64,000 bases of DNA from Bacillota bacterium (lineage in GTDB: Bacteria; Bacillota; Clostridia; Peptostreptococcales; Anaerovoracaceae), in NCBI GenBank assembly GCA_022769485.1, contig JALEJU010000032.1, forward strand, positions 16,440 through 80,439. The letters are read 5' to 3'. The stretch's first letter is position 1. Every line of letters starts with the position of its first letter. Positions 44,209 through 49,282 of the stretch are shown here, piece by piece. The notes beneath the pieces were generated by a model. It searched no databases and was not told the DNA's origin. It saw only the letters and a list, made by a program, of their open reading frames with translations. Made by a program: the position numbers and the translations under genes.

Positions 44209-45284
44209 TTTAATCCCTCCAAAATCTTCTTCGCTTTTTCTGCAACTTCCAGGGAAGTGGGAATGATGCCGCCGGTTCTGTGAATCAGTTCAACCGGGAA
44301 TCGTCCGCACACGCCCATTTTTACGTCCTGGAGCATCTGTCCCATAGATAATTCCGCTGAAATGACGACTTTCGTTTTGCTTTCAATCCGGTCAAATGCT
44401 TCGTACGGGAAGGGCCACAGAGAAATGGGACGGATCATGCCTGCTTTGATTCCTTCTTTTGCTAAGAGCTCTATAACCTCGTGAATCAGACGAGCCATGG
44501 TTCCAAAGGCAGTGAATACGATGTCCGCATCTTCTAAGCCGATGCATTCGTAACGAACCAGTTCTTTTTCAGCTTGTGCATACTTTTCATACAGCTTTTC
44601 CACATGAACTTCCAGGTCTTCCGGTTTTAAACGGAGGGATTTTACCACGCTGCGGTTTTCTTTGTAGCCGCTGCCGCTGGCCGCCCAGGGTTTTACTTTG
44701 GGAACATCGCCGGGGAGAAGGGGGGCTTTGGGTTCGGGAAGAACGACAGGCTCCATCATCTGTCCCATAATACCGTCGGCGAGAATCATAACAGGGTTTC
44801 TCCAATAGTCTGCCATAGAGGGTGCTTCGTAGAGAATATCCACGGCTTCCTGGATTGTGGAAGGCGCGAAAACCGGAATCCGGTAGTCGCCGTTTCCGCC
44901 GCCTCTGGTAACCTGAAAATAGTCTGCTTGTCCGGGCTGGATGCCGCCGATTCCCGGACCGCAGCGGGATACGTTCAAAAGTACCGCCGGAACTTCTGCG
45001 GAAGCCAGAAAGCTCATTCCTTCCTGCATGAGGGCAATACCGGGAGAGGAAGAGGAAATAAAACAGCTTCCTCCTGCGGCTCCGCAGCCGTAGGCCATAT
45101 TGATTGCTCCCAGTTCACTTTCCGCTTGCAGGAACGTTCCGCCTCTTTCGGCCAGTTCCCTGGACATATATTCGGGAATTTCACTCTGAGGGGTAATCGG
45201 GTAGCCGAAATAATAACGGCAGCCGCCTCGGATGACTGCTTCTGCGAAAGCTTCGTTTCCTTTCATTAATACCTTTTCTGCCAT
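44205..45284 (-). CDS. 2-oxoacid:ferredoxin oxidoreductase, alpha subunit
   Basis: GNEAFAEAVIRGGCRYYFGYPITPQSEI is the typical N-terminus. It overlaps the beta-subunit gene by 4 nt. Confidence 0.9.
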   Translation of the reverse strand: MAEKVLMKGNEAFAEAVIRGGCRYYFGYPITPQSEIPEYMSRELAERGGTFLQAESELGAINMAYGCGAAGGSCFISSSSPGIALMQEGMSFLASAEVPAVLLNVSRCGPGIGGIQPGQADYFQVTRGGGNGDYRIPVFAPSTIQEAVDILYEAPSMADYWRNPVMILADGIMGQMMEPVVLPEPKAPLLPGDVPKVKPWAASGSGYKENRSVVKSLRLKPEDLEVHVEKLYEKYAQAEKELVRYECIGLEDADIVFTAFGTMARLIHEVIELLAKEGIKAGMIRPISLWPFPYEAFDRIESKTKVVISAELSMGQMLQDVKMGVCGRFPVELIHRTGGIIPTSLEVAEKAKKILEGLK

Positions 45285-45502
45285 TATGCTTCCTCCTCAA
45301 AAATTTCAATCGCGCCATCGGGGCACATTACAGCGCAGCTGGTGCAGCCGACGCATTCTTCCTGCCGCTCCACAGACGCGGGGAAATATCCTTTGCCGTT
45401 AACGTGGGAACCCATGACGATCAGGTCTTTGGGGCAAACTGTTTTGCACAGTTCACAGCCTTTGCATTTGTCCGCATCAATGCGAACCACATATTTTGCC
45501 AT
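45284..45502 (-). CDS. 2-oxoacid:ferredoxin oxidoreductase, delta (2x[4Fe-4S] ferredoxin) subunit
   Basis: Two cysteine clusters, CKGCELCKTVCP and CVGCTSCAVMCP. ATG 45502 is preceded by AAAGGAG. It overlaps the alpha-subunit gene start. Confidence 0.85.
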   Translation of the reverse strand: MAKYVVRIDADKCKGCELCKTVCPKDLIVMGSHVNGKGYFPASVERQEECVGCTSCAVMCPDGAIEIFEEEA

Positions 45503-45559
45503 TAGTGATGCTCCTTTCAAATCGTAACAATAGTTCTATATTAATTGAATTTAATCTGC

Positions 45560-46282
45560 TTATTTGTCCAGCCATTCCGGGCGCATATATAATTGAAGCG
45601 GAAAAATCAATGTGTCCAAAAATTCCAGCTCCTGCGCAGAGACCAGAGGTTCCGGAAACGTATCACAGATAATGGGTTTTCCGGTTTTTTCGGAAAGCGC
45701 TTTGCAGAGTTCATGTCCTTTTTTTATATCCTCCGCTGTGGTTTCCCGAAGCAGGTGTGTATTGTTGATCAGACCTTTTACCTCTGTTTCCAGTTCTGTT
45801 TCGATGGCGTACAGGTGTTTTAAAGCACCGTTTAAATTTCTGGTTTCCGGGCGGTTTCGGTTAATGACGGTCAGAAGGATGGATTCTTCTGTTTGAAAAT
45901 ACTTTCGAAATTGCTTCAGTACCCGAGCGCCGCTGTCGTTTCCGCCGATATCCAGAATCGCGCAGCAGTCGGGATTTTCTAAAGGCGTCCGGATGGATGC
46001 GGACAGAGCGGGAAGCTCTGCTGTGATTTCTCCCCGGTACGCACTTCCGAATACCTGAATCCCGCTGGCCTCCAGAATTTCCGTACGTTCCCGGGAGCGG
46101 AAATAAGGATTTGCAACGTCTAAGTCTACTAAAGAGACTTCCTTAAAAGGACAGTGCATTTCATCGTTTTTTAATGCCAGAGCCAGATTGACCGCAAACT
46201 CTGTTTTTCCGCTACCGTAATGTCCGGTTATGACAATAATTCTCTTTTTCGTGTCAAAGAGATAGGGCATAGGCTGTTTCAT
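45560..46282 (-). CDS. P-loop NTPase (MinD/ParA/CooC-like), first gene of the oxidoreductase operon
   Basis: Walker A ITGHYGSGKTEF, followed by DLD and DIGGND patterns. I recognise no specific family. Confidence 0.6.
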   Translation of the reverse strand: MKQPMPYLFDTKKRIIVITGHYGSGKTEFAVNLALALKNDEMHCPFKEVSLVDLDVANPYFRSRERTEILEASGIQVFGSAYRGEITAELPALSASIRTPLENPDCCAILDIGGNDSGARVLKQFRKYFQTEESILLTVINRNRPETRNLNGALKHLYAIETELETEVKGLINNTHLLRETTAEDIKKGHELCKALSEKTGKPIICDTFPEPLVSAQELEFLDTLIFPLQLYMRPEWLDK

Positions 46283-46325
46283 AAAATATCCTTTCAGCGC
46301 GGCTCAAATTTCTCTCACCGTTCAT

Positions 46326-46360
46326 TTATAAAAGAAACCCCGCTCACTAAGAACGGGGTT
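46326..46360 (-). terminator. intrinsic terminator / candidate attenuator between the leader ORF and the operon
   Basis: On the minus strand, AACCCCG pairs with CGGGGTT around an 11-nt loop and is followed by TCTTTTAT. It ends about 45 nt before the first operon ATG, and I see no promoter in between. Confidence 0.55.
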
Positions 46361-46383
46361 GTGCTTACAACTATGATTATAAA

Positions 46384-46536
46384 CTAACAATTGCCTATTC
46401 TCAGTGTACCTGTGTTTTCATCAGATTTAGCTGCCAGCAGAATGCTAAGCAACAGAACCAGACCCAGCAATACAACGATTGCAGGGCTAATCAGCAGATC
46501 CAGGTTGTTGAGAACATGCATATAAGTTTTCATCAT
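46384..46536 (-). CDS. unannotated 50-codon ORF rich in Leu/Ile/Val (MMKTYMHVLNNLDLLISPAIVVLLGLVLLLSILLAAKSDENTGTLRIGNC); leader-peptide candidate
   Basis: The ORF runs from ATG 46536 to TAG 46384-46386, downstream of a minus-strand promoter and upstream of the terminator. By my count 22 of its 50 residues are L, I or V. The RBS is weak. Confidence 0.4.
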   Translation of the reverse strand: MMKTYMHVLNNLDLLISPAIVVLLGLVLLLSILLAAKSDENTGTLRIGNC

Positions 46537-46606
46537 TTTAATCTCAATTTCCTTTTCGTACGGTAAACAGCCTCCTTCTCAGCGGCTGCATAATTATCAC
46601 GCAAGT

Positions 46607-46634
46607 AGAATACCAAGAAAATTTAAGGTTGTCA
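46607..46634 (-). promoter_or_regulatory. candidate sigma-A promoter for the minus-strand leader and operon
   Basis: On the minus strand: TTGACA (46634-46629), a 16-nt spacer, then TATTCT (46612-46607). Confidence 0.5.
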
Positions 46635-46675
46635 AGTAGATTGTTGAAGGAAACAAAAAAATATAAAAAAAATTG

Positions 46676-46704
46676 CTTGACAGTACAAAAAAACGGTGTT
46701 AGTA
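46676..46704 (+). promoter_or_regulatory. candidate sigma-A promoter for the T-box leader
   Basis: TTGACA (46676-46681), a 17-nt spacer, then TAGTAT (46699-46704). Confidence 0.55.
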
Positions 46705-46711
46705 TGGGTGC

Positions 46712-46990
46712 GTAACTTAATAGAAACAAAGGCTGTGACGAAGACGGTTGAATTTTTTCGTTTCCAGAGAGTCGGCGGGCGCTGTGAGCCGATAATGAGA
46801 AAATTCGGGAACCTATCCCTTCCGAGCCGGGAGCCCGAACTCGCAGGAAAGTAGACGCTCTCCGTAATCGCTGCGTAAAAGCGAAAGGCTTGATAGAGCC
46901 TGTGAGGTGGTATGCTTTGCATGCAATTTGAGTGGTACCGCGGATTGTCAGATTCGTCTCAAAGAAAAAAATTCTTTGGGGCGTTTTTTT
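46712..46990 (+). promoter_or_regulatory. T-box riboswitch leader (Stem I, AGTA box, F-box-like element, T-box core, terminator)
   Basis: GA/K-turn motif (GUGA at 46734-46737 with GA at 46824-46825). AG bulge AGAGAG at 46766-46771 with a distal loop ending GUGA. AGTA at 46850-46853 and CCGTAATCG at 46862-46870. T-box core AATTTGAGTGGTACCGCGG at 46925-46943. A 12-bp terminator spans 46955-46983, followed by seven T. Confidence 0.85.
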
Positions 46991-47014
46991 ATGGCCCCGG
47001 AAAAGAGGTAAAAG

Positions 47015-49282
47015 ATGCAGCAGACAAATGAAATAAGTATGTTACGCGACGTAGCGGCCAGAATCCAGGAACTGAGAGAAATCTCCGGATATACCGCAGA
47101 GGAGATGGCGCAGAAAACCGATGTGAGCGCAGAGCAGTACAAAAGTTATGAAAGCGGAAATGTGGATATTCCGTTTACCTTTATTCATAAGTGCGCGCTT
47201 TGCTTCGGGGTGGAAATTTCCGACTTGATGGAAGGAACCAGCGCTCATTTAACATCTTATACGGTTACGAGAAAGGGAGCAGGTCAGATTACCGCCAGGG
47301 AAGAGGGAATTGAAATTCGAAATCTGGCTACCATGTTCCATAAAAAGATAGCGGAGCCGTATTGGGTAAAATATGAATATTCCGTTGAGCAGCAGTCGAA
47401 GCCCATTCATTTAACGACGCACAAAGGGCAGGAATTTGACTTTGTCCTGAGCGGACAATTAAAAGTGCAGGTAGGCACTCATACGGAAATCCTGTCCGAG
47501 GGCGACAGCATCTACTACGACAGCGCTACGCCTCACGGCATGATCGCTGTAGGCGGAGAAGACTGCGTGTTCTGCGCGGTGGTTCTTTCCGGCGAAGAAA
47601 ACGAAGAAAATCAGATGGGTGAAACAATCGTAGCGGCAAAGCAGACGGAGCATCTGATTTATGAAAACTTTATCCTGCCTCTCGAAGATGAAAACGGCGC
47701 ATTGCAGTCCATCGGGTTCCACAATGAAGATAAATTTAATTTTGCGTTTGACGTTGTAGATGAGCTGGCAAAGAAAAAGCCCAATAAGCTGGCCATGATC
47801 CATCTGGATAAGAACAAGAAGGAACGAAGATTTACTTTTGACGAAATCAGAAAGGCGTCTAACCGTACGGCAAACTATTTTAAGTCCATGGGGATTCAAC
47901 GAGGTGACTGCGTTATGCTGGTCTTAAAACGGCATTATCAGTTCTGGTTTGCCATATTGGCACTTCATAAGATCGGAGCGATTGCGGTGCCTGCGCCCAA
48001 CCAGCTTTTAACAAAGGATTTTGAATACCGTTTCCAATCGGCCGGAATCAAAGCCATCGTCTGCACGGCGGACGGCCAGACGGCGGAGTGCATAGACGAA
48101 GCGCAGCTTACATCTCCCAGCCTTGAATTGAAAGTCATGGTGGGCGGAAATCGACCCGGATGGCGGAACTTTGACGAAGAGTATCTGATGTACAGCGGAA
48201 AATTCGACAGAAGTGAGGACTGTCCCTGCGGCGACGATCCCATGGTTATGTTCTTCAGCTCCGGCACCACGGGTTATCCGAAGATGGCACAGCATAGCTA
48301 TAAATATCCGTTGGGACATTTCGTTACGGCGAAATACTGGCATTGCGTGGATCCCCACGGGCTGCACCTGACCATTTCCGATACAGGCTGGGGAAAATCT
48401 CTTTGGGGCAAGCTGTACGGGCAGTGGATGTGCGAAGCGGCAATTTTCGTGTATGACTTTGATCGCTTTGATGCCAACGATATCCTGCCGCTGTTCAAGC
48501 AGTATAAGATAACAACATTCTGCGCGCCGCCTACTATGTACCGCTTTATGATCAAAGAAGATCTGTCCCGGTTTGACCTGTCCAGTATCCGGCATGCCAC
48601 TACGGCAGGCGAGGCGCTGAATCCGGAAGTATATCATCAATTTAAAAAGGCGACGGGACTTTCTGTTATGGAAGGATTCGGTCAGACGGAAACCACTTTG
48701 CTGATCGGCAATCTGGTCGGCGATACGCCGAAAATCGGTTCCATGGGAAAAGCAAATCCGCTGTTTGATGTAGAGCTTATGACTTCTGACGGAAAACTGG
48801 CCGAAGTGGGAGAAACGGGCGAGATTGTAGTTCGGACGAAGGAAAATCTGCCTGTGGGTATTTTCCTGGGATACTACAGGGATGAGGAAAAGACGAGAGC
48901 ATCCTGGCATGATGGCTATTATCATACGGGAGATACGGCCTGGAAAGACGAGGACGGTTATTTCTGGTATGTAGGCCGGGTAGACGATTTGATCAAATCC
49001 TCCGGATACCGGATCGGGCCCTTCGAAATCGAAAGCGTTATCATGGAGCTTCCTTATGTGTTGGAATGCGGCGTATCGGCTGCCCCGGATGAGATCAGAG
49101 GGCAGGTCGTAAAGGCCAGCATCGTCTTGGTAAAAGGCAAGGAAGGTACGGAAGAATTAAAGAAAGAAATCCAAAACTATGTAAAGAAACGGACGGCCCC
49201 GTATAAGTATCCCAGAATCGTTGTGTTCAGGGACGAGCTGCCTAAGACGATCAGTGGAAAAATCCAGAGAAACAAATTATAA
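47015..49282 (+). CDS. fusion protein: XRE-type HTH plus cupin plus AMP-forming (medium-chain-like) acyl-CoA synthetase
   Basis: N-terminal HTH (ISGYTAEEMAQKTDVSAEQYKSYESG). A cupin (GQEFDFVLSGQLKVQVG...YYDSATPHG). Then ANL motifs (FFSSGTTGYPK, GFGQTE, YHTGD, and SGKIQR at the end). Confidence 0.8.
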   Translation: MQQTNEISMLRDVAARIQELREISGYTAEEMAQKTDVSAEQYKSYESGNVDIPFTFIHKCALCFGVEISDLMEGTSAHLTSYTVTRKGAGQITAREEGIEIRNLATMFHKKIAEPYWVKYEYSVEQQSKPIHLTTHKGQEFDFVLSGQLKVQVGTHTEILSEGDSIYYDSATPHGMIAVGGEDCVFCAVVLSGEENEENQMGETIVAAKQTEHLIYENFILPLEDENGALQSIGFHNEDKFNFAFDVVDELAKKKPNKLAMIHLDKNKKERRFTFDEIRKASNRTANYFKSMGIQRGDCVMLVLKRHYQFWFAILALHKIGAIAVPAPNQLLTKDFEYRFQSAGIKAIVCTADGQTAECIDEAQLTSPSLELKVMVGGNRPGWRNFDEEYLMYSGKFDRSEDCPCGDDPMVMFFSSGTTGYPKMAQHSYKYPLGHFVTAKYWHCVDPHGLHLTISDTGWGKSLWGKLYGQWMCEAAIFVYDFDRFDANDILPLFKQYKITTFCAPPTMYRFMIKEDLSRFDLSSIRHATTAGEALNPEVYHQFKKATGLSVMEGFGQTETTLLIGNLVGDTPKIGSMGKANPLFDVELMTSDGKLAEVGETGEIVVRTKENLPVGIFLGYYRDEEKTRASWHDGYYHTGDTAWKDEDGYFWYVGRVDDLIKSSGYRIGPFEIESVIMELPYVLECGVSAAPDEIRGQVVKASIVLVKGKEGTEELKKEIQNYVKKRTAPYKYPRIVVFRDELPKTISGKIQRNKL

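Follow-up and report, generated by a model that had tools for sequence, protein, structure and literature searches.

Amino acid genes of Firmicutes are normally controlled by T-boxes (RF00230), whereas the enterobacterial ilvGMEDA, ilvBN and leu operons are preceded by the leader peptides ilvL, ivbL and leuL, of 28-32 amino acids. Leader-peptide attenuation is thus a mechanism already known, and it is uncommon in Firmicutes. The closest documented Firmicute relative in kind of the element analyzed here is the leader of ilvD in the Staphylococcus aureus ilv-leu operon, a 26-amino acid Leu/Ile-rich attenuator peptide with genetic support (Kaiser et al. 2018, PMC5794164). The element itself is a leader encoded on the minus strand of a 64,000-nt stretch of contig JALEJU010000032.1, from a Bacillota bacterium of the family Anaerovoracaceae (the window, to which all coordinates refer), in front of an operon related to branched-chain amino acids.

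The initial annotation of this DNA had suggested a leader-peptide attenuator and had added that such a device would be unusual in Firmicutes, a fair remark to which the S. aureus ilvD leader provides a precedent. The elements of the leader, together with those of its counterparts in three more lineages (designated L085, L086 and L176), suggest that it functions as a Leu (Ile/Val)-sensing ribosome-mediated transcription attenuator, a reading to which we assign a probability of about 0.6. The features involved, including the open reading frame (ORF) as well as the numbered RNA segments, are as follows:

46607-46635, minus strand: promoter, TTGACA (46635-46630), 17-nt spacer, TATTCT (46612-46607), TG-extended
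46548-46556, minus strand: weak Shine-Dalgarno-like sequence AAAAGGAAA, 11-13 nt from the AUG
46384-46536, minus strand: leader ORF, 50 codons plus TAG, peptide MMKTYMHVLNNLDLLISPAIVVLLGLVLLLSILLAAKSDENTGTLRIGNC
46501-46519, minus strand: segment 1, GCAUGUUCUCA (46519-46509, codons 6-10) followed by ACCUG; codons 6-12, including Leu9 (CUC) and Leu12
46393-46412, minus strand: segment 2, CAGGUACACUGAGAAUAGGC, codons 42-48, with the core CACUGAGAAU at 46406-46397 (codons 44-47); pairs with segment 1 or segment 3
46345-46357, minus strand: segment 3, CC-C-GUUCUUAGUG, comprising the end of the terminator 5' arm, the loop and the first base of the 3' arm; pairs with segment 2
46327-46360, minus strand: intrinsic terminator (segments 3:4), AACCCCGUUC-UUAGU-GAGCGGGGUU followed by UCUUUUAUA
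45560-46282, minus strand: first operon gene, a P-loop ATPase (CbiA/ParA-like) of 240 amino acids, identified by profile matches

Like the S. aureus ilvD leader, the element belongs to a Firmicute, combines a short Leu/Ile-rich leader ORF with a terminator located tens of nucleotides past the stop codon and with a predicted alternative antiterminator, and would control genes for the supply of branched-chain amino acids, a response to Leu having been proposed for both. The two leaders differ in peptide length (26 amino acids in S. aureus versus 44-57 here), in the distance from stop codon to terminator (52 versus 23 nt) and in the antiterminator, which pairs with the poly-U tail in ilvD and with the 5' arm and loop of the terminator here. 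They share no sequence similarity, the S. aureus operon encodes the classical ilv-leu pathway whereas a putative VOR/acyl-CoA-ligase salvage route is found here, and the genetic support for ilvD contrasts with a leader known from sequence alone. The enterobacterial leaders show the same four-segment logic (1:2, 2:3 and 3:4 pairings), with regulatory codons in or after segment 1, a stop codon next to segment 2 and a hydrophobic peptide rich in Leu, Ile and Val. However, their segments 1 and 2 are adjacent, whereas here they are ~85 nt apart, with two hairpins in the interval, and the enterobacterial leaders operate in Proteobacterial hosts with well-established transcription-translation coupling. 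When positions 45000-48000 were searched with 4227 Rfam covariance models (cmscan, E<=10), neither Leu_leader nor any other leader family matched, and no credible family was found on the leader, the only matches being chance-level sRNAs. T-boxes also serve amino acid genes by choosing between terminator and antiterminator according to tRNA charging, but the leader described here has no specifier loop, T-box sequence or match to the family, and it would sense charging via a translating ribosome rather than by binding the tRNA.

Layout of the leader and its distribution

On the minus strand, the promoter is followed by a 5'-untranslated region (5'-UTR) of ~64 nt, the ORF, a 23-nt spacer, the terminator and, 45 nt further on, the ATG of the ATPase gene, and transcription would start near 46600. 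The two promoter hexamers are those assigned in the initial annotation, and the spacer between them, given there as 16 nt, is 17 nt long both by direct count and by the prediction tool. The 50-codon ORF at 46536-46384 was found as described, and the runs LLGLVLLLSILL and AIVV are indeed present in its product, whose Leu, Ile and Val residues add up to 21 of 50 (13, 4 and 4, respectively) instead of 22. Leu accounts for 26% of the leader peptide compared with 9.2% in the long ORFs of the window, and the three branched-chain residues for 42% compared with 22.8%; Leu is encoded by its common codons, with nine occurrences of CUG. A Leu-rich leader in front of an operon encoding VorB and IlvE represents the enrichment in cognate codons expected of an attenuator.

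The hairpin with a U-tract downstream of the ORF was also recovered, with a stem (46360-46336) of 10 pairs, 6 of them G-C, rather than the 7 bp first counted; it has the loop UUAGU, the tail UCUUUUAU and an energy of -17.4 kcal/mol. As previously stated, the terminator begins 23 nt past the ORF stop codon and the end of its U-tract lies ~45 nt from the operon ATG at 46282, which means that the leader ORF is separated from the first structural gene by an intrinsic terminator. The promoter scan revealed no promoter-like sites in the gap between the terminator and this ATG, in agreement with the earlier view that no second promoter separates them. Across 2 kb, the scan detected 7 promoter-like and 7 terminator-like sites compared with 3.1 and 2.1 in shuffled sequences, and the real argument is therefore the conservation of the layout: promoter, ORF and terminator occur in the same order before the orthologous operon in the three additional lineages, and the TTGACA box, the 17-nt spacer and the TG-extended -10 box are likewise present in the L085, L086 and L176 leaders. 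A further promoter-like site, CTGAGA-17-TATAAT at 46376-46404 (minus strand), uses segment 2 as its -35 box, and transcripts from it would begin just before the terminator; this site is probably a chance match. A CodY-box-like AATTTTC in the spacer of the leader promoter was dropped as a candidate element, since its conservation does not extend to L085 or L086.

Relatives of the leader peptide form three clusters only among 5.8 billion proteins (those of its own species, L085 and L086), and they are always located before the same operon. The own-species cluster comprises 8 variants from the NCBI, ENA and Logan collections, which include human and pig gut metagenome contigs, and within the genome the leader element is single-copy. 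The description of the ORF as unannotated is only partly true, as gene callers do predict it in public assemblies. The L085 peptide is 80% identical to that of the window. The last ~15 bases of the L085 contig in ENA (553-567, AGATCGGAAGAGCAC) correspond to an Illumina adapter and are not genomic. The L086 peptide is 43% identical, its ATPase is 66% identical, and the synteny extends to the divergent T-box gene described below. The fourth and more distant leader, L176, was taken from the neighborhood of a 60%-identical ATPase and shows a TG-extended promoter, an L/I/V-rich ORF ending in ...HTLGIIKK*, a terminator and 30 nt to the ATPase; the end of this ORF is in frame with the ...GTLRIGNC* of the window, at an equal distance from the TL codons.

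Other searches for the element were negative: no match was obtained when the leader was compared with 60 relatives by BLASTN, a six-frame peptide search of 150 family genomes yielded chance matches only, a covariance model of the leader (R1) gave weak matches (best, 33 bits) in 400 family genomes, none of them adjoining operon genes, and the exact pattern ACTGAGAATNGG-N(20-50)-CCGTTCTTAGT had zero matches in the genome and metagenome contig collections. In the genome contig collection, the L086 ATPase has only relatives at <=42% identity, and among the 400 family genomes its closest relative is the genome of the window itself. Other operons that start with the ATPase gene have neither leader ORF nor terminator, those of L177 and L178 being preceded by a plain promoter and a ~70-nt UTR and those of L026, L028, L029, L045, L047 and L051 by a 6S RNA gene. 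Since relatives occur in few lineages and the covariance model and pattern searches were empty, the leader element appears, in the collections searched, to be confined to one small clade. Within the species, 16 variable sites were observed in 380 nt (32 gut-metagenome contigs), too few for a test; one of these polymorphisms, 46396 A>C, falls at a position that is unpaired in both the 1:2 and the 2:3 helices.

Alternative pairings in the leader RNA

The core of segment 2, CACUGAGAAU (46406-46397), is complementary to GUUCUUAGUG (46354-46345) in segment 3, and two more G-C pairs form past a one-base mismatch, which results in an antiterminator of 10-12 bp between 46406-46394, at the 3' end of the ORF, and 46357-46345. 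For this 2:3 duplex, the energy is -15.3 kcal/mol in the window, -15.8 in L085, -16.3 in L086 and -14.6 in L176, and the minimum free energy (MFE) structure of a transcript ending before segment 4 is the antiterminator in all four leaders. The initial annotation had found only a weak competing hairpin (GTTGT/ACAAC); that statement does not stand, as the antiterminator described here is far stronger, and when the upstream 160 nt were dinucleotide-shuffled 1000 times, only 6 of the shuffled sequences paired as well with segment 3 (50 of 1000 in L086). The folding analysis proposed at that time therefore does reveal mutually exclusive terminator and antiterminator structures. The pairing is also specific for its register, with 97.5% of the cells paired in the four sequences versus 30-42% in slid registers, and the changes that it has undergone, all of them contributed by L176, consist of a compensatory pair, from A-U to G-C, plus three one-sided substitutions. 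The terminator stem, in turn, shows three compensatory pairs across the four lineages. The stop codon lies within the segment-2 core in L086 and 10 nt past it in the window, L085 and L176, and thus the antiterminator that excludes the terminator is built on a segment that a ribosome could cover at the end of the ORF.

Segment 2 has a second possible partner upstream, which would act as an anti-antiterminator. The block GUUCUCA (codons 8-10) of segment 1 can pair with it, as segment 3 does, with an energy for the 1:2 helix of -19.3 kcal/mol in the window and of -12 to -14 kcal/mol in L085 and L086. This helix is part of the RNAalifold consensus, L085 and L086 retain its pairs with A-U/G-U exchanges, and it is the MFE structure once segment 2 has been transcribed. 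When the RNA is folded up to segment 3, the 2:3 state (-73.2 kcal/mol) and the 1:2 state (-71.8 kcal/mol) are separated by a gap of 1.4 kcal/mol, and in the full-length ensemble the terminator stem has a probability of 0.997. In constrained folds, the terminator was obtained when the footprint of a ribosome positioned at the stop codon was masked, and the 2:3 pairing when segment 1 was masked. The folding of the whole leader is more stable than that of shuffled sequences (z = -3.5), and two additional hairpins were predicted in it:

46567-46589, minus strand: 5'-UTR hairpin GCAGCC...GGCUGU; its stem is kept in L085, with a different loop
46458-46494, minus strand: internal hairpin AGCCCUGCAAU / AUUGCUGGGUCU in the Leu-rich core (codons 15-27), present in the RNAalifold consensus

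The internal hairpin shows one compensatory pair (U-A to C-G) in L086 and may act as a pause or spacer element. The loop of the 5'-UTR hairpin, which is not kept in L085, carries a perfect Shine-Dalgarno-like sequence, GAGAAGGAGG, that is not followed by a start codon.

The comparison of the window with L086 points to a constraint on the leader RNA rather than on the sequence of the peptide. The differences between the two ORFs are distributed as 16, 12 and 10 over the first, second and third codon positions (of ~37 each), i.e. with no third-position bias. Moreover, a 1-nt indel shifts the L086 frame before segment 2, so that its peptide ends in ...RIRLSNMEMH with the stop codon UGA inside CACUGAGAAU, and yet the nucleotide block CACUGAGAAU.GG is retained. 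Segment 2 is therefore invariant in three lineages despite the different reading frame in L086, and so it is conserved as RNA and not as peptide. Among the coding features, an in-frame start with a Shine-Dalgarno-like motif is kept even though the L086 5'-UTR is unrelated in sequence, the L086 version (GAAGGAUGAUACAAAUG) being better than that of the window; in the four lineages there is an in-frame AUG (UUG or AUG in L176) with such a purine run. An in-frame 3-nt indel is also among the features kept. The four ORFs have 13, 13, 13 and 12 Leu codons, whereas the numbers of Ile (2-7) and Val (2-11) vary. The comparison of orthologous leaders suggested earlier thus gave the result that attenuation would lead one to expect, with a steady number of Leu codons and a drifting peptide sequence. 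The outcome named as contrary to it, a membrane peptide conserved with synonymous drift in genomes lacking the terminator, was not observed, as the terminator was always present, the substitutions showed the distribution given above and the L086 C-terminus was frame-shifted. Constrained RNA segments, a maintained frame and maintained Leu codons combined with a drifting peptide are the pattern that a regulatory leader predicts, and this pattern would not easily be expected of a functional membrane protein.

An attenuation model and its alternatives

The initial idea of a leader-peptide attenuator is thus supported by a 2:3 pairing kept in four lineages and by a possible upstream partner in three of the four. 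From these elements we infer that the ORF is translated, that ribosomes stall in it, that termination takes place in vivo and that an amino acid provides the signal, according to the following model. Transcription would start at the TTGACA-17-TATTCT promoter, and the nascent RNA could adopt three mutually exclusive pairings, i.e. 1:2 (codons 6-12 with codons 42-48), the 2:3 antiterminator and the 3:4 terminator. With ample charged tRNA-Leu (and tRNA-Ile/Val), the ribosome would reach the stop codon and cover segment 2, allowing the 3:4 hairpin to form and to halt transcription 45 nt before the operon; in the absence of translation, the pre-formed 1:2 helix would likewise lead to the terminator. 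When Leu-tRNA is scarce, the ribosome would stall at Leu9, Leu12, Leu14 or Leu15 (segment 1) or in the LLGLVLLLSILL run, and this stalling would block segment 1 and free segment 2 for pairing with segment 3 as soon as the latter emerges, permitting read-through into the operon, whose products would convert branched short-chain acids into branched-chain amino acids.

Several observations weigh against this model. At equilibrium the terminator outcompetes the antiterminator (-25.6 versus -21.6), so the model depends on kinetics, and it needs a transcription-translation coupling that is weak in Bacillus subtilis. The energy of the 1:2 helix does not go beyond chance (120/1000 and 366/1000 shuffles), and a clear counterpart of segment 1 was not found in L176. 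For the 2:3 helix, only one compensatory pair was observed, and the column-shuffle control is not significant (131/500); therefore, with four sequences, the support comes from register specificity and conservation and not from covariation statistics. Moreover, the four lineages are the only ones available, and two of them are close. The ribosome-binding site is as weak as first noted, and the Shine-Dalgarno-like sequence is distant as well as weak in both the window and L085. The ORF (44-57 codons) is longer than those of classical leader peptides, and its product resembles an ordinary single-pass membrane peptide. Finally, L176 has an extra terminator-like hairpin (387-411; GAAGCAUACG-AAUUC-CGUAUGCUUU followed by UUUGUUAU) inside or just before its ORF, within an 89-codon frame and shortly before an internal AUG, that the model does not explain; it may be a tandem attenuator or may occlude the ORF start.

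An alternative is an RNA switch sensing a metabolite, a protein or a tRNA instead of the ribosome, in which 1:2 would be the P1 stem closing an aptamer-like domain, 2:3 and 3:4 would form the expression platform and the ORF would be incidental. A P1 around conserved hairpins followed by an antiterminator and a terminator is the layout of many OFF riboswitches, and the third codon positions conserved as much as the others, the invariance of CUGCUGGGUCUG in the window, L085 and L086 and the weak Shine-Dalgarno sequence would fit such a device. Nevertheless, we consider it unlikely, as no Rfam family was matched at E<=10, the P1 stem is long and stable without a ligand (11-16 pairs, -12 to -19 kcal/mol), which makes termination the default and calls for an opener, and the ORF does not behave as incidental: an in-frame AUG with a Shine-Dalgarno-like motif, the in-frame 3-nt indel and a stop codon in the segment-2 core or 10 nt after it are found in the four lineages, the Leu codon count is constant (12-13), and L176 has kept the ORF end and the 2:3 pairing with an interior that lacks recognizable similarity to that of the window. 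A more specific version, a new riboswitch-like class with 1:2 as P1 and the two conserved internal hairpins as aptamer, which without ribosome reading would respond to leucine or to 2-oxoisocaproate/isovaleryl-CoA and control the synthesis of branched-chain amino acids by reductive carboxylation in gut Clostridia devoid of the ilv/leu pathway, is in our opinion quite improbable. It is also doubtful that the ORF constitutes a gene in its own right, encoding a small single-pass membrane protein and possessing its own terminator, with the operon expressed by leaky read-through or from an unrecognized promoter. The peptide certainly has a transmembrane profile (a polar N-terminus, 23 hydrophobic residues and then K/D/E), gene callers predict it in many assemblies, and a hydrophobic ORF also precedes the L176 operon. 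However, it has no Pfam match and no relatives away from this locus in the protein collection mentioned above, it shows no visible purifying selection (43% identity to L086, absence of third-position bias, frame-shifted C-terminus), the gap behind the terminator leaves no space for a promoter, and a plain gene followed by a terminator would not account for the conserved complementarity of the ORF end to the terminator loop.

The possibility that the unit from promoter to terminator is a divergent 6S RNA gene was considered because, in the six lineages listed above, RF00013 matches (58-74 bits) precede the ATPase-VOR operon by 100-300 nt on the same strand, because 6S RNA is present in 112 of 151 family genomes and has no match at E<=10 in the 100%-complete genome of the window, and because the leader folds better than its shuffles. 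This identity was rejected and is effectively refuted: even with permissive filters there was no RF00013 signal at 45000-48000 (E<=10), the motifs of the family (GGGA...CCCACCU and CCUG.GGUG.UCG...CGGCAC) are absent, the predicted transcript is ~270 nt instead of ~180 nt long, and the element has a conserved ORF and a terminator/antiterminator pair. In several other relatives, a 6S RNA gene is found within 1-8 kb of the orthologous ATPase-VOR operon. A type I toxin-antitoxin system, with a small hydrophobic toxic peptide under the control of an antisense RNA, is hardly credible either. The size and hydrophobicity of the peptide do resemble those of Fst- or TxpA-like toxins, but the plus strand offers no convincing antisense promoter or terminator (only a 9/12 match at 46508-46536, pointing away), the terminator is unidirectional, and the element is present in a single copy at a fixed position upstream of a metabolic operon.

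The downstream operon and its T-box neighbor

The operon that the attenuator would control extends from the ATPase gene to 37919 and encodes further a Fer4 delta subunit, the alpha (VorB-type), beta and gamma subunits of a 2-oxoacid:ferredoxin oxidoreductase, IlvE, a LeuA-like protein and a fusion of a TIM-barrel domain with an AMP-forming acyl-CoA ligase. Its proposed relation to branched-chain amino acids is borne out by NCBIfam scores above the cut-offs for VorB (465 bits versus 399) and IlvE (487 bits versus 307); the LeuA-like protein scores under the LeuA cut-offs. No match to IlvD (TIGR00110) was found in the 100%-complete genome, and LeuC was not detected above its cut-off, the sole match being a 667-amino acid aconitase-like ORF on contig 26 that scores below it. 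The organism therefore appears to lack the classical ilv/leu pathway, and an operon with an acyl-CoA ligase, VOR and IlvE is a plausible route from branched short-chain acids to branched-chain amino acids. Induction by starvation fits this biosynthetic direction of the operon.

A T-box is located on the opposite strand, ~90 nt from the leader:

46726-46964, plus strand: T-box leader with a score of 87.3 bits, slightly short of the gathering score (93), preceding the divergent gene at 47015-49282

This T-box, one of five matches in the genome, has its own promoter (46677-46705), ~40 nt apart from that of the leader, and its own terminator (46955-46983), and it controls the divergent gene, which encodes an HTH-cupin-AMP-binding protein (acyl-CoA ligase).

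If the attenuation model is correct, this leader would constitute a clear case of attenuation mediated by the ribosome in a Clostridial lineage of the gut and would imply that transcription and translation are functionally coupled in that lineage. It would also provide a regulatory argument for the VorB-IlvE-acyl-CoA-ligase operon running toward Leu, Ile and Val, and would link genes and a sensor to a nutritional observation made long ago on anaerobes of the gut and rumen. For annotators, it would mean that small hydrophobic "hypothetical proteins" located before amino acid operons can be leader peptides.

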